A stretch of 64,000 nt of DNA from Candidatus Altimarinota bacterium (lineage in GTDB: Bacteria > Patescibacteriota > Gracilibacteria > CAIRYL01), in NCBI GenBank assembly GCA_965250085.1, contig OZ252287.1:1088001-1152000 (forward strand), read 5' to 3'. A program made the translations under genes and the position numbers. The notes beneath the pieces were generated by a model. It had not been told where the DNA came from, ran no database searches, and worked only from the letters and a program-made list of their open reading frames with translations. Positions 49,652 through 59,570 of this stretch are shown here, one piece after another. Numbering within the stretch: the first letter of the stretch is position 1; each line of letters begins with the position of its first letter.

Positions 49652-50797
49652 TTGATGTATATGGAACAAAGAATCAAAAATCTCAAAGTAGCAATTGTGG
49701 CTGATTGGCTGACAAATTTTGGAGGTGCAGAAAAAGTAGTTCAGAGTTTTTTGCATGTTTTTCCTAATGCTGATCTTTTTACTACTCTGGCGACAGAAGA
49801 TATACTCAAAAAATTGGAAAGAAAAAACGTACACACCAGCTTTTTGCAAAAACTTCCGAAGTGGATAAGAAAAAAGCATCAACTTTTCCTTACTCTCCTT
49901 CCAAAGGCAATAGAGTGTCTTGATCTCTCTGAATATGACTTGGTGTTCTCTTCTTCCTCATTTGTAGGAAAGGGATGTCTCACCAGTCCGGAGACGTTAC
50001 ATATCTGTTATTGCCATACCCCTACCAGATATCTATGGGATACCTGGCAGGAATATGTCGCAGAATTCCCTCTCCCAAGAGGATGCAATTGGATCAAAAT
50101 TTTTTTGCCGCGCATTCTTTCACGCCTCAGAATATGGGATACCTTTGCCTCAAAACGTCCTGACCATTATATTTCTAACTCTGATTTTATTGCGCGACGT
50201 ATTAGCAAATACTACGGCAGAGGCTCAGAAGTTATTGAACCACCGGTGAACTTTACCTTTTTTAAAAAAGGCATCAAAACTTCTCAAAAAGATCACTACA
50301 TTGCCATGGGAAGACTTACTCCCTACAAACGATTTGATCTTCTCATCAACACCTTTGCCTCACTTCCAGAAAAAAGACTCAAGATTTTAGGAAGTGGACC
50401 GGATGAGAGACGACTCAAAGATTTGGCAAAAAAAGCTCCCAACATCGAATTCCTTGGGTTTGTTCCATATACTGATCTTCCGAGACTCTTAGGAGAAGCA
50501 AAAGGATTCCTTTTTCCACAAATAGAAGATGCTGGCATTTCTCTTATGGAAGCACTGGCAACAGGCACTCCGGCCATTGCCTTTCAAAAAGGCGGATCGC
50601 TCAATGTCATTAAAGACGGAATAAATGGTATTTTCTTTGCAGAACAGAACGCATCATCACTCCAAGATGCGCTCAATCGATTTGAAAATATGAAATTTGA
50701 TACACAAAAAGTTCAAAATTCAGTGAGTAGTTTTGCTCGTGATACGTTTGAAAGGCGAATCAAGGAATTTTGTGAAGAGAAGTGGAAGGAGTTTTAG
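49652..50797 (+). CDS. Glycosyltransferase family 4
   Basis: DWLTNFGGAEKV, CYCHTPTRYLW, GRLTPYKR, EDAGISLMEALATG. Confidence 0.92.
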   Translation: MMYMEQRIKNLKVAIVADWLTNFGGAEKVVQSFLHVFPNADLFTTLATEDILKKLERKNVHTSFLQKLPKWIRKKHQLFLTLLPKAIECLDLSEYDLVFSSSSFVGKGCLTSPETLHICYCHTPTRYLWDTWQEYVAEFPLPRGCNWIKIFLPRILSRLRIWDTFASKRPDHYISNSDFIARRISKYYGRGSEVIEPPVNFTFFKKGIKTSQKDHYIAMGRLTPYKRFDLLINTFASLPEKRLKILGSGPDERRLKDLAKKAPNIEFLGFVPYTDLPRLLGEAKGFLFPQIEDAGISLMEALATGTPAIAFQKGGSLNVIKDGINGIFFAEQNASSLQDALNRFENMKFDTQKVQNSVSSFARDTFERRIKEFCEEKWKEF

Positions 50798-50820
50798 AAA
50801 CTATTCCTGTTCCATTCACC

Positions 50821-50850
50821 AAAACCCCCTCTACCCCTTTGCAAGGGGGA
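50821..50850. repeat. REP-like family A (degenerate single hairpin)
   Basis: AAAACCCCCTCTACCCCTTTGCAAGGGGGA between convergent genes. Confidence 0.55.
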
Positions 50851-50856
50851 GCAAAT

Positions 50857-51708
50857 TTATTTCTTCACGAATGATTTTTGACCTCCTATGTTTTTCCATG
50901 TCCAGAAAAAGATGGTAGCCGAAAGCGCTAACAGAATTAAAAAGATACGTAGTCCACCAATACTTATCTCACTTCCAAAAGCAAGGAGTGACATCAGGCA
51001 TTCACGAAGTGTAATCGCCAAGGTAAAGAGCATGACAAAACCTGAGACAAAGAGAAGAACAAAATGAAAAATAGCACACGCTTCAGATTGTATCTTCGGC
51101 ATAATTCTTTTTTGTCCATAATATGATGGCAACAAAAAGACTCCCAAAAGTGCTGTGGGGACTACGATACTGATAAAGTTCATCAAAAACTTGAGTCCTG
51201 ATTCATGAGTTTCAAACTGATCTGCAAATCCAAATTTCAGAAGCCAATTGGTCAGATACACCAGAAGAAAAACATCAAGGAGAATCAAAATGCCAGTAGA
51301 GAGAAGATGAAATACATGAGATGTATACAATACGGGACTTTTCACTTCATTCTTCTCGGTATCAAAGAGACTTCTTGGGAGAAATTTTTTCCCAATAACG
51401 AGAAGATATCCCCCTACGAGAAGAAGTATGATTTCTAGTCGCAAATTACTCATGGTCCAAAGCCCTCCTGCATCACCCCCAAATCCGATTTGCTCCAATA
51501 GATCATTTGCAAACAATCCGACTGCCAAAAGTATGGCGAGTATTCCACCCCCCCAAACCTTAAATGAAAACAGAGAGGAAAGAATGCGATTGGGTGATTT
51601 GGCAAGGAGGTATATAGCTGGGAAGAAAACGCCCACGGAACTAATAAAAGCGACCCAAAACAGGAGGGCAAGTATTCCAAAAACGGCTGGGAAGAATGCG
51701 GAGATCAT
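50857..51708 (-). CDS. Hypothetical multi-pass membrane protein
   Basis: About seven TM segments; start uncertain (51780 or 51708). Confidence 0.7.
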   Translation of the reverse strand: MISAFFPAVFGILALLFWVAFISSVGVFFPAIYLLAKSPNRILSSLFSFKVWGGGILAILLAVGLFANDLLEQIGFGGDAGGLWTMSNLRLEIILLLVGGYLLVIGKKFLPRSLFDTEKNEVKSPVLYTSHVFHLLSTGILILLDVFLLVYLTNWLLKFGFADQFETHESGLKFLMNFISIVVPTALLGVFLLPSYYGQKRIMPKIQSEACAIFHFVLLFVSGFVMLFTLAITLRECLMSLLAFGSEISIGGLRIFLILLALSATIFFWTWKNIGGQKSFVKK

Positions 51709-51826
51709 AGAGAAAAGAAAAAATTTATGAGTAAATTCTTTCGGGAGAGTAGCAGAAATGCTTCTTTGAGAGCAATACATGATTTCAGCATCCTCAATGT
51801 CTGAATTTTAGAACTGTAAAAAACTC

Positions 51827-51880
51827 TTGACTTTATATTCTTTCATATCTATATTTACTAGTGTTCTAGTAAGATAGTAT
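51827..51880 (+). promoter_or_regulatory. trp promoter and tandem TrpR operator
   Basis: TTGACT (51827-32), 17 bp, TATATT (51850-55); TTACTAGTGTTCTAGTAA (51855-72) plus a third 8-bp-phased half-site; compare E. coli GAACTAGTTAACTAGTAC. Confidence 0.82.
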
Positions 51881-52147
51881 ATGAAGAGCTCTCCAGACTT
51901 TATAAATGAATTGGCAAAAGTCATTGCGCATATTCACAATACAAAACGGGCAGAAGAGTTTCTTCTGGGCATATTAACTCCATCAGAGCGGGAAGAAGTG
52001 GCTCGCAGATTGCAAATATTGAAACTGTTAAAGCAAGGACATTCCCAATGGGAAGTAGCAAAAAAATTGGGTGTAGGAATTGCCACAGTGAGCAGAGGAG
52101 CAAAGGAATTGAAATATGGGAATTCAAAATTTCTTAATACTCTTTAA
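51881..52147 (+). CDS. trpR: Trp repressor family protein
   Basis: LTPSEREEVARRLQI..LL, SQ.E...LGVGIATVSRG; first gene of the trp operon. Confidence 0.88.
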   Translation: MKSSPDFINELAKVIAHIHNTKRAEEFLLGILTPSEREEVARRLQILKLLKQGHSQWEVAKKLGVGIATVSRGAKELKYGNSKFLNTL

Positions 52148-52148
52148 A

Positions 52149-52208
52149 ATGAAATCTTCAAACACAAAATTGCAGGCTTGGTGGATAACTTTTTTCGTAC
52201 GGCATTGA
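52149..52208 (+). CDS. trpL: trp leader peptide MKSSNTKLQAWWITFFVRH
   Basis: Tandem TGG TGG at 52179-84; ATG 1 nt after the trpR stop; followed by the attenuator. Confidence 0.82.
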   Translation: MKSSNTKLQAWWITFFVRH

Positions 52209-52270
52209 GGTGCCCATTTTTCTGAAACTGTAAAAGTTTGTAAACACCTCATCGCCGAGGTGTTTTTTTA
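52206..52270 (+). terminator. trp attenuator (antiterminator/terminator pair)
   Basis: Terminator AAACACCTC-ATCGCC-GAGGTGTTT plus T-run; alternative pairing TGAGGTG (52206-12) / CACCTCA (52245-51). Confidence 0.82.
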
Positions 52271-52283
52271 TTTTTAAAATATA

Positions 52284-53783
52284 ATGATTCAATATAGCAA
52301 AATACACACTGGCATATACGAAGGGTCTGAAGAGATTCCGTATGAGACCGCGCATGAAATATTTTCTCGGTTGTACAGAAATTATGAATTCAAGTTTTTA
52401 CTAGAATCCAAGGACATTTCTCATATCTATGGAAGGCTCAGTCTCATCGGCGTTGATCCCATCTTGAAAATATCTGGAAAAGATGAAAATTTTGAGATTT
52501 CTGTATTACAGGAAAGAGGGAAATCGTATTTGGAACGCATATCGAAAGACGACTTGGCACTTTGTGATCATTGCGAGAGAGGGGAAAATGGTATTACAGG
52601 AAGAATTTCTAAAAAAACTCACGAATTTGACGAAGCAAAACGATCTCAACAAAAAAATATTGCCCAGGTCATCAGAATGGCTTTACAAGGATTAAAACTT
52701 AAAAGGAAGAGCTTTCTTGGCCTCTACGGAGCTCTGAGCTATGACTTTATTCGTCTTTTTGAAGAAATTCCTAATATTTTACCGGAGAACGATGTAAATG
52801 ATTTTACTTTTTTTCTCTATGACACATTTGTCTTCTTTGATCATCTGAAGGAGAAAACAGAAATTATTGCCTTTCGAGGTGATATACAGAGTGCTCAGAA
52901 GGCTATCTCCAAGATCTGTAAACAAGTAAAAGTAAAAAAGAAGCCTTCTTCTTATGAAATCTCAAGAGTGAAATTTTCCCTGAAACAGGATGAATATGAA
53001 AAAATGGTTGAAATCGCAAAGGAGTACACCAAAAAAGGAGAATTGTTTGAAGTCGTCTTTTCAAATATTCTAAACGCTCATTTTAAAGGAGACCCATTTG
53101 CACTGTATCTTGCCTATCGTGAAACAAATCCGTCTCCGTATCTTTTTTATTTTGACTTTGGAAACGAACAACTTGTAGGAGCATCCCCAGAAATGATGGT
53201 GCGTGTGGAAAACAATATCGCCCATCTTCGTCCTATTTCAGGGACAGCTAGAAGGGGTGAAGACGCCATTGAGGATCATGAGAATATGCTTTCTCTTCTC
53301 AGCGATCCCAAAGAGAAGGCCGAACTCGATATGCTTATTGATTTGGGGCGAAACGATCTGAGCAGGATTTGTAAGCCAAATTTAAAAATTAGTGATTATC
53401 GATTTGTTGAAAAATATTCAAAAGTAATGCACACGGTGGCTCATTTGCAGGGTGAATTGAGATCTGGATATATCGCCCTTGACGCTCTCATTGCCTGTCT
53501 TAATGCTGGCACACTTACGGGGGCACCAAAAGTTGCTGCAATGAAGGTAATTGAAAAGCATGAGAAAGAGAGAAGAGGATATTATGGTGGTGCTCTTGGC
53601 TACTTTACCTTCTCAGGCGAAATGGACACTGGGATTATTATTCGTACGGCACACATTCGAAAAAATGCACTGAGATTTCAGGTAGGAGCGACTTTACTCC
53701 ATGATTCTCAGCCAAAGAAAGAATATGAAGAGACGCTGCAGAAGGCACAGGCTTTTTTAAACACATTCGTTCATCAATCTTAA
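52284..53783 (+). CDS. trpE: Anthranilate synthase component I
   Basis: LLES, NPSPY, GASPE, RPISGT, DLGRND, AGTLTGAPK, YGGALG. Confidence 0.95.
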   Translation: MIQYSKIHTGIYEGSEEIPYETAHEIFSRLYRNYEFKFLLESKDISHIYGRLSLIGVDPILKISGKDENFEISVLQERGKSYLERISKDDLALCDHCERGENGITGRISKKTHEFDEAKRSQQKNIAQVIRMALQGLKLKRKSFLGLYGALSYDFIRLFEEIPNILPENDVNDFTFFLYDTFVFFDHLKEKTEIIAFRGDIQSAQKAISKICKQVKVKKKPSSYEISRVKFSLKQDEYEKMVEIAKEYTKKGELFEVVFSNILNAHFKGDPFALYLAYRETNPSPYLFYFDFGNEQLVGASPEMMVRVENNIAHLRPISGTARRGEDAIEDHENMLSLLSDPKEKAELDMLIDLGRNDLSRICKPNLKISDYRFVEKYSKVMHTVAHLQGELRSGYIALDALIACLNAGTLTGAPKVAAMKVIEKHEKERRGYYGGALGYFTFSGEMDTGIIIRTAHIRKNALRFQVGATLLHDSQPKKEYEETLQKAQAFLNTFVHQS

Positions 53784-53784
53784 T

Positions 53785-54372
53785 ATGTCTCATTATAAAA
53801 ACATTCTCGTTATTGATAACTTTGATTCATTTACCTTTAATTTGGTTGATTATCTTACGCAGCTAAATTGTAAGGTCACAACGCTTCGCAACACTATCAG
53901 TATATCCTCTGTAGCGAAAATTGACCCAGATTTAATTGTTCTTTCTCCTGGTCCATCGGTTCCAAAAAACGCAGGGAATCTTATGGGTATTATTGATAGA
54001 TATCATGATATATATCCAATATTCGGAGTCTGCTTGGGACACGAAGCGCTCATTGAATATTTTGGTGGCACGCTTACATTTACTGAACCAGTTCATGGAA
54101 AAGCTTCTCCCATTCGTCATGATGGAAAGACTATTTTTACCGGACTTGAGCAGAATTTTATGGCAGGTCGATACCATTCTCTCATAGCCGACAAAGTGCC
54201 ATCATGCTTCTGCACTTCAGCAAAATACAAAAATATTGTTATGGGAGTGCGTCATAGAAGCCTGCCAATAGAAGGCGTGCAGTTTCATCCAGAGTCAGTT
54301 CTGACCATGAAAGGTCAAAATGGATTTCATATTATTAAAAATCTTGTTTATGGATACGATAGAATTTCTTAA
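53785..54372 (+). CDS. trpG: Anthranilate synthase component II (glutamine amidotransferase)
   Basis: IDNFDSFTFNL, LSPGP, GVCLGH, RYHSL, QFHPES. Confidence 0.95.
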   Translation: MSHYKNILVIDNFDSFTFNLVDYLTQLNCKVTTLRNTISISSVAKIDPDLIVLSPGPSVPKNAGNLMGIIDRYHDIYPIFGVCLGHEALIEYFGGTLTFTEPVHGKASPIRHDGKTIFTGLEQNFMAGRYHSLIADKVPSCFCTSAKYKNIVMGVRHRSLPIEGVQFHPESVLTMKGQNGFHIIKNLVYGYDRIS

Positions 54373-56656
54373 ACGGAGTATCTCCGGTCGGCTTTCCTTG
54401 CATCAGCAAAAGGAATTTTTAGAATCAAAAAAATCACTTACTGCTGAGGAGTTCAGGGATATCGTTGTTTTTTTGCAAAAGGACCTTCCAGAGAAGCGGA
54501 GGTTTTCTGAAGCAATTGATGTTTGTGGCACCGGTGGGTCGGGTCTCCAGAGGATCAACACCTCTACCATTGCTGCTTTTATTTTGGCGTCACTAGGAGT
54601 CAAAGTGGCGAAACATGGGAATAAAGCTGCAAGTGGCCGTTTTGGCAGTTTTGATCTTGTGGAAACACTTGGTATTAATTCTCATAGTTCTGAAACGCTC
54701 TATCATAATCATCATCTTGCGCTTCTTTTTGCTTCGGAGTTTTACCCGGCCATGAAGCATTTCGCGCCAGTCAGGAAAAGTATCGGGAAGCCAACCTTCT
54801 TTAATCTCTTAGGACCACTCTTGAGTCCTGTGCGTGCACAGAAACAAATTATCGGTACTGCGTTTCGAGATAAAATGGAAATCATTGCTCAAACATGCAA
54901 ACTTCTTGGAAAAAAGCATGTTTTTGTGGTTTGTGGGGAAGATGGACTGGATGAAGTGACTCTGACCGGAAAAACATATGTAGTGGAACTCCATAAGAAC
55001 AAAATACAAAAATATATAATTTCTCCAAAAGATTTTGGACTCTCCTCATGTTCTTTCTCTGAAATCAAAGGAGGAACCCCAAAATATAATGTAAAAATGA
55101 CTCAATCTATACTCCAGGGAAAATGTAAAACTAAACATTTGGATCTTGTGCTCATCAATGTTGCTCTTGCGCTTCAGCTCACTGGGAAAGCAGTAAATCT
55201 TAAAGATGGATATCGTTTGGCGAAACAGGCTGCTCAGGAAGGAAAAGCATTCGAGACGCTTCATATCTATCAAGAATATTCTAAAACTCCTCATATTCTT
55301 CAAAAAATCGTTCAACATAAATGTGAGGAATTGGAAAAAAGGAAACTGAAATACTCCTTAGAAAAACTAAAAAAAGAAGCTCCAATCTGCGATAGAAATT
55401 TTATAGCGCGTCTGCAAAGACCAAGATTATCTCTTATTGCCGAAATAAAAAAATATTCTCCCAGCTCGCCAAAAATAGCTTCTGGAAGCTTTTCACCAAC
55501 AAGGATTGCACGACTCTATGAAAAAAATGGTGTTGATGCAATCTCTGTGCTTTGTGATCAAAAATATTTTGGTGGTAGCTTACAGCATCTTCAAAAAGCG
55601 TATGAACATACAAAACATACTCCGATTCTTTGCAAAGATTTTATTATTGATGAATATCAAATCTACGAAGCGAGAAAATATGGTGCTTCCGCAGTGCTTT
55701 TGATTGCAGCAATTTTAAATGAAGATCAGATAAAGAAGTTTCTGAAGGTAGTGGAAAGTCTGAAAATGACGGCTATATGTGAAGTGCATAATCGCGAAGA
55801 ACTTGAAAAAGTACTCAAAACTTCAGCGAAAGCAATTGGCATCAACAATAGAGATTTAAATACTTTTACGACAAGCATGCGGGTAACGAAAAAACTTGCT
55901 CCGCATATACCTGCTGACAAAATTCTCATCTCTGAGAGTGGCATTACTTCAAAAAGTAATATCGATTTACTCCCAGAAAATATTGATGCAGTACTCATAG
56001 GAACATCTTTCATGTCCAGCGAGAATATTTCAGAAAAAATACACAGTCTTTTTCGTTCACAAAAACCACTTTTGAAGATATGTGGTATTCGCACAGAAGA
56101 GGAAGCATATTTTTGTGACGCACTCGGCATAGACCTTATTGGTCTTAATTTTGTCGAAAAAAGCCACAGATCTGTCTCTGTCAAAAAAGCAAATATAATT
56201 TGCGAAAATATTACTCATGCAAAAACAGTTGGAGTTTTTCAAAATCATAAACTGGAAGAAGTAAATAAAATAGCGACTGCGCTTAATCTCGACTACATAC
56301 AGCTTTCCGGCAAAGAGACGCTGTCTTATGTTCAAAAGTGTTGTAAGCCGGTTCTCAAAACTATTCCTCTCAAAACATCAGCAGATATAAAAATAGCTGA
56401 AAAATATTTGCCACATGTGTCTTATGTCATTTTTGATGGCCCCGATCCTGGGAGTGGAAAAATGATGAATACTGATCTTTTGAGAGGTATTTCAGGAAAA
56501 TTCTTTCTGTCGGGAGGAATAAATGCAAACAATATTGGAACAATGATACAAAAATTGCATCCATTGGGAGTTGATATTGCCAGCGGCGCAGAAACAGATT
56601 TAAAAATCGATTTACAAAAAATTTCTTTTCTCTTTCATCACCTTTCACCATGTTAA
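54350..56656 (+). CDS. trpDCF: Trifunctional fusion: anthranilate phosphoribosyltransferase (TrpD) + indole-3-glycerol-phosphate synthase (TrpC) + phosphoribosylanthranilate isomerase (TrpF)
   Basis: TrpD: DVCGTGG, KHGN, FNLLGPL, DGLDE. TrpC: IAEIKKYSPS, LCKDFII, GINNRDL, SESGI. TrpF: KICGI, GLNF, QLSG.E, LSGGI, GVDIASG. Confidence 0.92.
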   Translation: MDTIEFLKRSISGRLSLHQQKEFLESKKSLTAEEFRDIVVFLQKDLPEKRRFSEAIDVCGTGGSGLQRINTSTIAAFILASLGVKVAKHGNKAASGRFGSFDLVETLGINSHSSETLYHNHHLALLFASEFYPAMKHFAPVRKSIGKPTFFNLLGPLLSPVRAQKQIIGTAFRDKMEIIAQTCKLLGKKHVFVVCGEDGLDEVTLTGKTYVVELHKNKIQKYIISPKDFGLSSCSFSEIKGGTPKYNVKMTQSILQGKCKTKHLDLVLINVALALQLTGKAVNLKDGYRLAKQAAQEGKAFETLHIYQEYSKTPHILQKIVQHKCEELEKRKLKYSLEKLKKEAPICDRNFIARLQRPRLSLIAEIKKYSPSSPKIASGSFSPTRIARLYEKNGVDAISVLCDQKYFGGSLQHLQKAYEHTKHTPILCKDFIIDEYQIYEARKYGASAVLLIAAILNEDQIKKFLKVVESLKMTAICEVHNREELEKVLKTSAKAIGINNRDLNTFTTSMRVTKKLAPHIPADKILISESGITSKSNIDLLPENIDAVLIGTSFMSSENISEKIHSLFRSQKPLLKICGIRTEEEAYFCDALGIDLIGLNFVEKSHRSVSVKKANIICENITHAKTVGVFQNHKLEEVNKIATALNLDYIQLSGKETLSYVQKCCKPVLKTIPLKTSADIKIAEKYLPHVSYVIFDGPDPGSGKMMNTDLLRGISGKFFLSGGINANNIGTMIQKLHPLGVDIASGAETDLKIDLQKISFLFHHLSPC

Positions 56657-57633
56657 TTGTCATGCAAAACACCGCTTCTCAGAAGCAAGTCGAAGATGTT
56701 GTGAATGCCATCGAAAAACTCAATCTCAAAGCAGAAAAGATTCCGGGTTCTCAGCGTACGGCCATTGGAGTCATTGGAAATAAAGACTATGTTAACGAAG
56801 GAGGTATTCTTAATTTTCCAGGGGTAAAAGAGATAATCCATGTGACCAAAAAATATAAGTTGGTGAGCAGGGAATATAAAAACGAGGATACTCTGGTAAA
56901 AGTGGGGAACACAGTTGTTTTTGGAGGTAAAAAACCCGTCGTTATTGCTGGTCCCTGTTCTATAGAATCTGAGGATCAATTTCTTACCATCGCCAAGACG
57001 GTAAAAAAACTTGGTGGCGATATGCTCAGGGGTGGTGCGTATAAACCAAGAACTTCTCCCTATTCCTTTCAGGGACTCGGAGAAAGTGGTTTACGAATTA
57101 TGAAAAAAGTATCTCAGCAAGTGGGACTTCCGATAGTGAGCGAAATTATTTCTGCCGAGGATATACCACTGTTTCAAAAGTATGTTGATATGGTTCAAAT
57201 TGGCTCTCGAAATATGCACAATTTTGACCTCATTCAAAAAGTTGCCCTTATGGGCAAACCTATTCTTCTCAAGAGAGGGATGTCGGCAATGATGGAGGAG
57301 TTTTTATTGGCTGCAGAATATATTTTGAATGCAGGGAATCCAAATGTTGTTCTTTGTGAAAGAGGAATACGGACTTTTGAAAATTCCACAAGGAATATAC
57401 TTGATCTCAACACTCTCGCACTCATTAGAAAGGAGTCGCATTTGCCGATTATTGCTGATCCAAGTCATGCGGCTGGTCGTTTTGACCTTATCACACCGCT
57501 TGCAAAATCAGCACTTGCAGCCGGTGCACAAGGACTTATTGTTGAAGTCCATAATAACCCAAGAGAAGCTCTTTCTGATGGCGAACAGTCACTCAATTTG
57601 GACACTTTCCATTCCTTTATGAAACAACTATGA
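56650..57633 (+). CDS. aroF: 3-deoxy-7-phosphoheptulonate (DAHP) synthase, type I-beta with N-terminal regulatory domain
   Basis: IAGPCSIE, RGGAYKPRTSPYSFQG, QIGSRNM, LCERG, DPSH. Confidence 0.93.
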   Translation: MLIVMQNTASQKQVEDVVNAIEKLNLKAEKIPGSQRTAIGVIGNKDYVNEGGILNFPGVKEIIHVTKKYKLVSREYKNEDTLVKVGNTVVFGGKKPVVIAGPCSIESEDQFLTIAKTVKKLGGDMLRGGAYKPRTSPYSFQGLGESGLRIMKKVSQQVGLPIVSEIISAEDIPLFQKYVDMVQIGSRNMHNFDLIQKVALMGKPILLKRGMSAMMEEFLLAAEYILNAGNPNVVLCERGIRTFENSTRNILDLNTLALIRKESHLPIIADPSHAAGRFDLITPLAKSALAAGAQGLIVEVHNNPREALSDGEQSLNLDTFHSFMKQL

Positions 57634-58826
57634 AATCGCTTAAAAAGTACATATTGAATAGATCTGGACACTTTGGGATATATGGGGGCAGATATATTCC
57701 TGAACTCCTCATGCCCATCATGGAGGAATTGGAGCAGGCTTTTTACGAAAGCATACGAGATCGCGATTTTCTTTCTGATCTCAAAGGTTTGTATACCACT
57801 TTTGTTGGCAGACCTACTCCTTTATATTTTTGTGAGAACCTAACGAAAAAGCTAGGAGGAGCTAAAATCTTTCTCAAAAATGAGGGGCTTGCTCACACCG
57901 GGGCACATAAAATCAATCACTGCACAGGACAGGCGCTCCTGGCAAAAAAACTTAAAAAGAAAAGGATTATTGCAGAAACAGGAGCAGGACAACACGGTTT
58001 AGCTACTGCGACCATTGCAGCAAAATTTGGATTTGATTGCACTATTTATATGGGTGCAAAGGACTATAAAAGGCAACGTCCAAATGTGTTCTGGATGGAA
58101 AGACTCGGAGCGACAGTAGTTCCAGTTACAATTGGCGGCCAAATACTGCGAGATGCAATCAACGAAGCATTGCGGGACTTGATTTCGAACCCGAAAGATA
58201 CTCATTATTTACTGGGTACTGTGTGTGGACCTCATCCATATCCAGTGATGAATGCATATTTTCAAAGTATTGTCGGAAGGGAGATGAAAAAGCAACTTCA
58301 GAAAAAACCTAATTATCTCGTTGCCTGTGTTGGCGGTGGGAGCAATGCCATGGGCATTTTTCATGAGTTTTTGGATGATCAGGATGTCAAAATGATAGCT
58401 GTGGAAGCAGGGGGGAGGAGTTTAAAATCGACAAAGAAAGGATGTGAGCACGCTGCTCGTTTTGAAAAAGGAAAAGTAGGAGTAACTGAAGGGTTTAAAT
58501 CGTATTTTCTCCAAGATAAGCACGGACAGATGCGAGAAACACACAGTATTGCCGCAGGATTGGATTATTCTGGAGTGGGACCTCAACTCGCATATCTCAA
58601 AGATATTGGTCGTATTAAAACTTCGTACGCATTCGATAGAGAAGTGCTCGAAGCATATACACTTTTAGCAAAAGAAGAGGGAGTTCTTGCTGCTCTAGAA
58701 TCCTGCCATGCTGTTGCTGAGGTTATCAAGCTTGCTCCAAAGCTCAATAAAGAAGAAGTTATAGTTTTCAATTGCTCTGGAAGAGGGGATAAGGATTACT
58801 TCATTGTTCGGGATAAATTTTCATAA
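57630..58826 (+). CDS. trpB: Tryptophan synthase beta chain
   Basis: HTGAHKIN, AETGAGQHG, ACVGGGSNA, AGLDY, SGRGDKD. Confidence 0.97.
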   Translation: MKSLKKYILNRSGHFGIYGGRYIPELLMPIMEELEQAFYESIRDRDFLSDLKGLYTTFVGRPTPLYFCENLTKKLGGAKIFLKNEGLAHTGAHKINHCTGQALLAKKLKKKRIIAETGAGQHGLATATIAAKFGFDCTIYMGAKDYKRQRPNVFWMERLGATVVPVTIGGQILRDAINEALRDLISNPKDTHYLLGTVCGPHPYPVMNAYFQSIVGREMKKQLQKKPNYLVACVGGGSNAMGIFHEFLDDQDVKMIAVEAGGRSLKSTKKGCEHAARFEKGKVGVTEGFKSYFLQDKHGQMRETHSIAAGLDYSGVGPQLAYLKDIGRIKTSYAFDREVLEAYTLLAKEEGVLAALESCHAVAEVIKLAPKLNKEEVIVFNCSGRGDKDYFIVRDKFS

Positions 58827-58832
58827 TTCCAA

Positions 58833-59570
58833 ATGAAACTCATGACTCACATCGTCGGCGGATATCCCACTATGAAAGAATGTGAAGCTATAGCACTTAC
58901 TATGGTAGAAGCAGGAGTATCATATTTAGAAATTCAAATTCCTTTTTCCGATCCCATCGCTGATGGCAGAACAATCTTGAAAGCTAATACAAAAGCTTTG
59001 CAAAATGGAATTACTCCTGAGGATTGTTTTAGACTTATGAAGAAGTTAAAACGGCAGACAAATATACCTCTTCTGTTTATGACCTATTACAATATCCCCT
59101 TTCGTTATGGGCTTGAAAAGTTCTGCAAAAAAGCAAAAGAGATAGGGTGTTATGGACTTATAATCCCTGATATTCCTATAGATGAAGAAAAATATGAGAA
59201 TTATCTTTCGATTTGTAAAAAACATAAACTGCACGCCATACAAGTGATTTCTCCTCTTACTCCTGAAGCGAGGTTAAAGAAAATAACAAAAGTCGCATCG
59301 GGGTTTGTGTATTGTGTCTCGTCTTCTGGTACCACAGGGGAAAGAAAGAATTTCTCTCCGAAGTTGGATGAATATCTCAAGAGAGTGCGAAAGCATATAC
59401 ATGTGCCAATAGCTTTAGGATTTGGAATTTCCAGGAAAAGCCATATTGGAGTCATTCAAGAAAAAGTGGATATTGCCATAATTGGGAGCAAATTGATCAA
59501 TCTTTATAACACTTCAAAGGAGAATAAGTTACAAACAATAAAAAGCTTTCTCAAAAAACTAACCTCCTAA
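58833..59570 (+). CDS. trpA: Tryptophan synthase alpha chain
   Basis: GYP, LEIQIPFSDPIADG, MTYYN, GTTG, GFGIS. Confidence 0.95.
   Translation: MKLMTHIVGGYPTMKECEAIALTMVEAGVSYLEIQIPFSDPIADGRTILKANTKALQNGITPEDCFRLMKKLKRQTNIPLLFMTYYNIPFRYGLEKFCKKAKEIGCYGLIIPDIPIDEEKYENYLSICKKHKLHAIQVISPLTPEARLKKITKVASGFVYCVSSSGTTGERKNFSPKLDEYLKRVRKHIHVPIALGFGISRKSHIGVIQEKVDIAIIGSKLINLYNTSKENKLQTIKSFLKKLTS

Follow-up and report, generated by a model that had tools for sequence, protein, structure and literature searches.

The window analysed here is a stretch of 64,000 nucleotides from the forward strand of contig OZ252287.1 of a Candidatus Altimarinota bacterium (positions 1,088,001 to 1,152,000), and the coordinates given below count from its first base. 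It carries a tryptophan operon whose genes all lie on the + strand. The operon begins with a trpR-family repressor gene (51881-52147, 88 aa, Pfam PF01371, stop codon TAA at 52145-52147), which is followed, after a spacer of 136 nt, by trpE for anthranilate synthase I (52284-53783, Pfam PF00425 and PF04715), trpG (53785-54372), a trpD-trpC-trpF fusion (54320-56656), a DAHP synthase gene (56650-57633), trpB (57630-58826) and trpA (58833-59570), the last five also assigned by Pfam. In the fusion, trpD, trpC and trpF form a single frame of 778 aa, which overlaps the end of trpG by 53 nt, and the DAHP synthase gene lies inside the operon, with the fusion on one side and trpB on the other. Together the six enzymes encoded by the operon contain 1 Trp in 2,442 residues, as compared with 1.0% genome-wide. 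The host genome is a single contig of 1.37 Mb with 40% G+C and belongs to the Patescibacteria (CPR). TGA acts in it as a stop codon, which ends 101 of the 561 ORFs of at least 300 aa (915 kb in all, table 11). A code in which TGA is read as Gly, as happens in some relatives (G060 has 17 in-frame TGA codons), was weighed for the host genome and ruled out by this count.

The product of the first gene is recognized as TrpR by Pfam PF01371 (E 5.9e-21, 74.8 bits against a cut-off of 27) and by similarity to the E. coli TrpR structures (E about 4e-7). Among the NCBIfam models, TIGR01321 TrpR scored best with 58.8 bits, a value below its cut-off of 67.25, and YerC/YecD reached 37.6. The gene contains a single Trp codon, as the first-pass annotation of this DNA had stated. 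A second, weak TrpR-like match is found elsewhere in the same genome, outside the window (G000:C1:331475-331705, E 4.8e-4, 26% identity). Upstream of trpR there is a promoter-like site on the + strand with 10 of 12 consensus matches, composed of TTGACT (51827-51832), a spacing of 17 nt and TATATT (51850-51855). A TTGAC-type -35 element was seen at a similar place in most of 20 related loci in a by-eye reading without counting. The -10 element and the start region are overlapped by a TrpR-operator-like inverted repeat, TTACTAG-TGTT-CTAGTAA (51855-51872, no strand assigned), and palindromes of the type GTACTAnT...nTAGTAC occur at the same place upstream of trpR in relatives. When compared by eye with E. 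coli trpO, as given in PMC13762905, the palindrome was equal at 12 of 18 positions and had its ACTAG/CTAGT cores at the same spacing. Because a palindrome so similar to trpO is situated at the promoter, repression by TrpR is probably combined, as in E. coli, with attenuation at the predicted attenuator described below.

The spacer between trpR and trpE contains a short leader ORF (MKSSNTKLQAWWITFFVRH, 52149-52208, +) of 19 codons, in which codons 11 and 12 are the tandem Trp codons TGG TGG (52179-52184) and the stop codon is TGA (52206-52208). Its ATG at 52149 is separated from the TAA of trpR by the one nucleotide at 52148, and the description in the first-pass annotation of a 19-aa, WW-containing frame placed 1 nt after trpR therefore holds. 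An in-frame ATG further upstream, at 52116, makes a 30-aa form of the leader possible. Downstream of the leader lies an intrinsic terminator (52242-52275, +), which consists of the stem AAACACCTC/GAGGTGTTT (52242-52265), the loop ATCGCC and a T-tract. The hairpin has 9 bp and an energy of -11.7 kcal/mol, with T7 at 52263-52269. The stop codon of the leader is covered by the antiterminator 5' strand GGCAUUGAGGUGCCCAUUUU (52201-52220, +), the partner of which is the terminator 5' arm together with the loop (52242-52256). The segment TGAGGTG (52206-52212) can pair without any mismatch with CACCTCA (52245-52251) in the terminator 5' arm, which confirmed the earlier claim of a stop codon lying inside a strand able to pair with the arm of a 9-bp terminator followed by a U-tract. 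The antiterminator is longer than was noted at that time, as GGC (52201-52203) pairs with GCC (52254-52256), and UUU with AAA. The duplex between the stop-codon segment and the terminator arm and loop has an energy of -16.9 kcal/mol, which was reached by 0 of 500 shuffles. The region 52140-52285 as a whole was not more stable than its shuffles (z -1.11); therefore, the signal lies in the alternative pairings and not in the total folding energy. At the leader stop codon, the RNA can also form a small hairpin (GGCAU-UGAG-GUGCC, 52201-52214) followed by CAUUUUU (to 52221). A U-run after the stop-codon segment is seen again in most relatives, where it mirrors the 3' side of the terminator and pairs with an A-run that precedes the 5' arm. 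The small hairpin and the U-run could serve as a pause site.

A plainer reading of these elements is that the hairpin merely terminates a monocistronic trpR, that the WW frame is a chance ORF and that trpE has a promoter of its own. Terminators are common after regulator genes, and a weak promoter-like match (TTCAAA-16-TAAAAT, 9 of 12) is present at 52123-52150. However, only 18 nt separate the end of the terminator stem from the trpE start, and since this gap is mostly filled by the T-rich tail, there is no room in it for a trpE promoter, while transcription from any promoter further upstream still meets the terminator. Moreover, an in-frame TGGTGG was found in only 131 of the 20,293 ATG-initiated ORFs of 10-40 codons in this genome (0.65%), and Trp-rich frames of quite different sequence occupy the same place in 20 further distinct loci, each with a matching antiterminator. 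A monocistronic trpR followed by a chance frame is therefore very improbable.

The first-pass annotation had proposed that a ribosome at the leader stop codon masks the antiterminator strand, so that transcription ends, and that a ribosome stalled at the Trp codons leaves this strand free and permits read-through. RNA folding with masked ribosomes behaved in the predicted way. When nascent RNA was folded as far as the terminator loop, a ribosome placed at WW left 9 of 9 bases of the arm paired (antiterminator -16.1 versus terminator -11.7 kcal/mol), and one placed at the leader stop left 0 of 9 paired. In the full-length RNA with the ribosome masked at the stop codon, the probability of the terminator, P(terminator), was 0.997. 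The part of the proposal that needs modification concerns equilibrium: with the ribosome stalled at WW, the full-length fold of the window still favours the terminator (P 0.74), and therefore the switch must be kinetic and not thermodynamic. The same is true of the trpL switch of E. coli.

The conservation of the tandem Trp codons in relatives had been named beforehand as a point on which the proposal depended. When the comparison was carried out, many CPR genomes and metagenome contigs proved to have Trp-rich leaders, with a matching antiterminator and a terminator, in the homologous spacer between trpR and trpE, the related loci coming from Peregrinibacteria, Peribacteria, Gracilibacteria, Roizmanbacteria and other Patescibacteria. 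The TrpR search gave a match in 31 of 61 related genomes, and trpE followed trpR in 10 of the 30 loci retrieved; among these 10, G041 and G053 have an ATGA-overlapping leader with WW or WAW and a terminator. In six loci of family f2 trpR is joined directly to trpE, and in one locus (G015) the two are fused. The latter locus (L006, G015:C1, about 688150-691371) has a 599-aa frame, in which the TrpR domain runs straight into TrpE, an apparent TrpR-TrpE fusion in a family-f2 genome. The scan of genome contigs yielded 70 loci, 19 of them with trpE after trpR. In ten of these 19 a separate leader containing 2-3 Trp codons is present together with a terminator, seven are without a spacer, one (L032) has a spacer of 109 nt without WW, and in one (L042) the tail of TrpR includes a Trp codon. 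From the metagenome scan 80 loci were kept, and in 20 of them trpE lies within 400 nt. This group comprises 10 separate leaders with 2-3 Trp codons, two single-Trp leaders (PWC and CWC), three loci with Trp codons in the C-terminal tail of TrpR (L101, L102 and L107) and five loci without a spacer. The sequences of L002 and L003 are the same as those of L038 and L045.

Twenty-two distinct spacers share one design, in which 1-3 Trp codons are followed by a terminator and an antiterminator strand lies over the leader stop codon; the 22 loci are related, so the counts given for them are not independent of each other. Loci L113, L133 and L134 were left out of this set, because they encode the same leader peptides as L044, L132 and L051. 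The automated scan detected a terminator in 21 of the 22 spacers, and in the one that it missed (L108), a hairpin with one mismatch and T6 is visible in the sequence. For the stalled state, nascent RNA up to the terminator loop was folded with a mask extending 14 nt beyond the first nucleotide of the final Trp codon. Most of the terminator 5' arm was then paired in 21 of 22 spacers, and when the mask stood at the stop codon, the region of the arm was free or only weakly folded in all 22 (MFE 0 to -4.1 kcal/mol). The stalled-state energy was reached by no more than 10 of 200 shuffles in 17 spacers, and the other five failed to beat 95% of the shuffles.

The spacing of the elements was conserved as well. 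Counted from the first nucleotide of the final Trp codon, the antiterminator strand begins at +12 to +21 nt (median +18) in 21 loci. The distance between this codon and the stop is variable (12 to 33 nt), and the strand always stays within -14 to +16 of the stop. This spacing fits a strand which is just free of a ribosome stalled at Trp and is covered by one standing at the stop codon. Read-through might also be set by a trans-acting factor on the spacer RNA, such as a TRAP-like protein, a T-box-like tRNA contact or TrpR itself, for which the small hairpin at 52201-52214 could provide a binding site. However, the conserved distance of the in-frame Trp codons from the antiterminator strand is explained by a ribosome only. 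Moreover, an Rfam scan of 50000-54000 at E up to 10 returned five matches, all of them weak and unrelated and none to a leader, T-box or riboswitch family, the enterobacterial Trp leader family (Trp_leader, RF00513, which covers the E. coli trpL leader-peptide attenuator of trpEDCBA) being among those without a match. Control by such a factor is thus extremely improbable.

Full-length folding at equilibrium predicted the switch in 8 of 11 loci, with a stalled P(terminator) of 0.35 or less. The window, as stated above, was one of the remaining three, together with L044 (0.98) and L060 (0.92), and folds of nascent RNA were the more consistent readout. In naked nascent RNA the antiterminator formed in 11 of 11 loci. 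No conserved region-1 partner, able to sequester the antiterminator strand and so give termination when the leader is not translated, was found in the 11 loci, for which the naked full-length P(terminator) ranged from 0.000 to 0.99. RNAalifold, applied to 19 spacers aligned with MAFFT, returned 0 consensus pairs, because the stems are in different registers. Taken together, the order of the elements, their masked folds and their conserved spacing make it very probable that the locus is, like E. coli trpL, a ribosome-mediated Trp attenuator, predicted to operate inside the operon, between trpR and trpE.

How the ribosome reaches the leader is a separate matter. The first-pass annotation had suggested that leader translation depends on re-initiation by ribosomes that have finished trpR, and had pointed to the missing Shine-Dalgarno (SD) motif. 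The latter argument does not stand, because the genome lacks SD enrichment at all gene starts (SD cores precede 61 of 850 gene starts and occur in 96 of 850 control windows), which makes the missing leader SD uninformative. The coupling to the trpR stop codon itself was supported by the relatives. The stop codon of trpR and the start codon of the leader overlap as ATGA in 16 of 20 separate leaders, and the other four, that of the window included, start 2-16 nt past the trpR stop. In two lineages the Trp codons are in the trpR frame. In the metagenomic loci L101 (255-557) and L102 (1965-2267), TrpR ends with ...HAWWQP(Y/L)SRG (in L101 ...HAWWQPYSRG*), and in L042 and L107 it ends with ...IIWQSPTSKRGRR*, with one or more Trp codons in the C-terminal tail. 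In all four fused loci the stop codon lies in the antiterminator strand, and the terminator is next, so that the frame of the repressor itself seems, as far as its sequence tells, to serve as the leader. Because the two forms fall in different TrpE clades, the Trp-tail fusion probably arose twice. The forms with the Trp codons in the trpR frame indicate that, at least in some lineages, it is the ribosome reading trpR that acts as the sensor.

The attenuator might also work with a leader that is initiated independently, from the ATG at 52149 or at 52116, in which case the closeness to the trpR stop codon would only reflect a compact genome. In a genome devoid of an SD signal, an SD motif is not needed for initiation; the start region is A/U-rich, and AAGGA stands 8 nt before the ATG at 52116. 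ATGA junctions are also usual between trpR and trpE in leaderless relatives, and the four leaders starting past the trpR stop, among them that of the window, do so without overlap. Against this stand the overlaps in most separate leaders and the two lineages with fused forms, in which one ribosome certainly reads both the repressor and the Trp codons. Independent initiation is accordingly regarded as rather unlikely, and a hand-over of the ribosome from trpR to the leader, suggested by the arrangement of the two frames, is moderately probable.

Building on the computed elements, their alternative pairings and their conservation, the following course of events may be proposed for the cell. Transcription would begin at the TrpR-controlled promoter upstream of trpR, and the ribosomes finishing trpR would most likely restart on the 19-codon leader, the ATG of which lies just past the stop codon. 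When charged tRNA-Trp is plentiful, the ribosome would reach the leader stop and cover 52201-52220, which would allow the terminator hairpin at 52242-52265 to form and would leave a terminated transcript of trpR and the leader only. When the ribosome stalls at the Trp codons at 52179-52184, or when no ribosome is present, 52201-52220 would pair with the 5' arm and loop of the terminator as soon as these are made. With the antiterminator formed, the polymerase would continue into trpE-trpG-trpDCF-DAHP synthase-trpB-trpA.

A wider proposal, which is plausible and is advanced here only tentatively, is that the repressor gene and the attenuator constitute one translational unit. In such a unit, which would have a design of three elements, termination would need a ribosome handed on from trpR, and transcription without a ribosome would read through. 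Free Trp would be sensed via TrpR and charged tRNA-Trp via translation, transcripts of trpR only would be made in excess Trp, and the repressors with a Trp-containing tail (L101/L102 and L042/L107) would represent the end point of this arrangement. Because the ribosome would be handed on from trpR, neither a region-1 hairpin nor a pause-and-load step would be needed. Since the trpR frame includes a Trp codon too, read-through in the absence of a ribosome would also be the right and safe response to starvation.

Attenuation by leader peptides is well established in textbooks; it is known chiefly in Proteobacteria and in a small number of other cultured groups. The Patescibacteria (CPR) are tiny, uncultured and mostly symbiotic organisms, which are usually described as devoid of amino-acid synthesis. 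The literature found on such systems dealt only with E. coli, Chlamydia, Sinorhizobium and related bacteria, and for Patescibacteria, CPR or Peregrinibacteria the search returned no relevant literature on trpR or on attenuation of trp genes. The locus offers a clean candidate example of a leader-peptide attenuator in the Patescibacteria. The CPR series, in which the leader follows trpR, is joined to its stop codon and is sometimes fused with it, may help to explain how attenuators synchronise with translation, whether an attenuator can do without the region-1 hairpin if the polymerase is already trailed by a ribosome, and how two Trp sensors combine in one message. It also draws attention to small leader ORFs, which are missed by genome annotation.

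In E. coli, the trp operon has two layers of control, leader-peptide attenuation and a TrpR operator at the promoter, as described in PMC7755916 and PMC13762905. The locus in the window resembles trpL in having a short ORF with tandem Trp codons and mutually exclusive antiterminator and terminator structures directly upstream of trpE. By computation, it also shares the outcome of the two ribosome positions, namely termination with the ribosome at the leader stop and read-through with the ribosome stalled at Trp, and an operator-like palindrome takes the place of the TrpR operator at the promoter. Unlike trpL, however, the leader in the window does not open the transcript, but follows trpR with its start abutting the trpR stop, and it has neither an SD motif nor a conserved region-1 partner for a region 1:2 pairing.

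For Chlamydia trachomatis and C. felis, Merino and Yanofsky reportedly predicted in 2005 that a trpL lies between trpR and trpB. The C. trachomatis ORF has 59 aa with non-consecutive Trp residues and is called a poor, unvalidated attenuator in PMC7755916; the C. felis ORF has 40 aa with WW, and according to PMC3937554 no attenuator structure had been reported for it. As these sources describe the chlamydial operons, trpR is the first gene in them, as in the CPR loci, and is separated from the biosynthetic genes by a short ORF that contains Trp codons and has a predicted attenuator. The chlamydial spacers, however, measure about 230 nt and their ORFs are long, whereas the CPR leaders have 13-27 aa (19 in the window) and 2-3 adjacent Trp codons, are joined to the trpR stop and show clear alternative hairpins. 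The CPR leaders may be seen as a well-formed counterpart to the disputed chlamydial trpL. In Simkania negevensis the operon trpR-trpE-trpG-trpD-trpC-trpF-trpB-trpA-aroA is described in PMC3937554 as autoregulated. It is similar to the operon in the window in being led by trpR, in including a DAHP synthase gene and in its tightly packed or overlapping genes. According to the same source, 18 nt separate trpR from trpE in Simkania and there is no leader, which resembles the leaderless CPR loci and differs from the window. For an attenuator placed after trpR, the chlamydial prediction is the only precedent, to the extent covered by these sources, and the arrangement predicted here, a trpL-type attenuator inside the operon and coupled to trpR, appears to be new.

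The distribution of the operon in the group of the window is patchy, because none of the 11 other genomes searched in its own family (G001-G011) has a close TrpE or TrpR. The best TrpE-like matches in these genomes are 30-35% identical over residues 140-490, the chorismate-binding half, and their TrpR-like matches have E of 1e-6 or worse. The nearest operons occur in other families of the same class, and the trp operon of the window's genome may be either a survivor of loss or acquired by transfer. A TrpE tree was built from 34 rows, without L032, L104 and L111, whose sequences were too short. Explaining the leader label on this tree takes 7 changes, of which well-supported branches force at least 4, so that the leader was lost or gained several times. 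Because L042 and L107 carried the label 'none' despite their fused form, the counts of 'none' and 'leader' are slightly off. The alignment shows shared motifs, CUGAGGYG at the stop codon and CGAGGUG followed by a U run at the terminator, and because of them one origin with several losses and two fusions is suggested.

Two metagenomic loci, L104 and L130, have a single Trp codon beside Cys codons (PWC and CWC), and their close relative L060 has WWW. This looks like a TGG-to-TGT decay of the regulatory codons with the terminator and antiterminator retained. In distant loci of the Microgenomates type, Trp-containing short frames and terminators are also found after trpR. Five loci of the Roizmanbacteria/Microgenomates type (L057, L149, L112, L062 and L152) have longer short frames with scattered Trp codons and a strong terminator, followed by a gene 28-35% identical to TrpE, and these frames may represent a remote variant of this attenuator. 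The motif ...NSWRAICWRV.LW.N is conserved between L057/L149 and L112.
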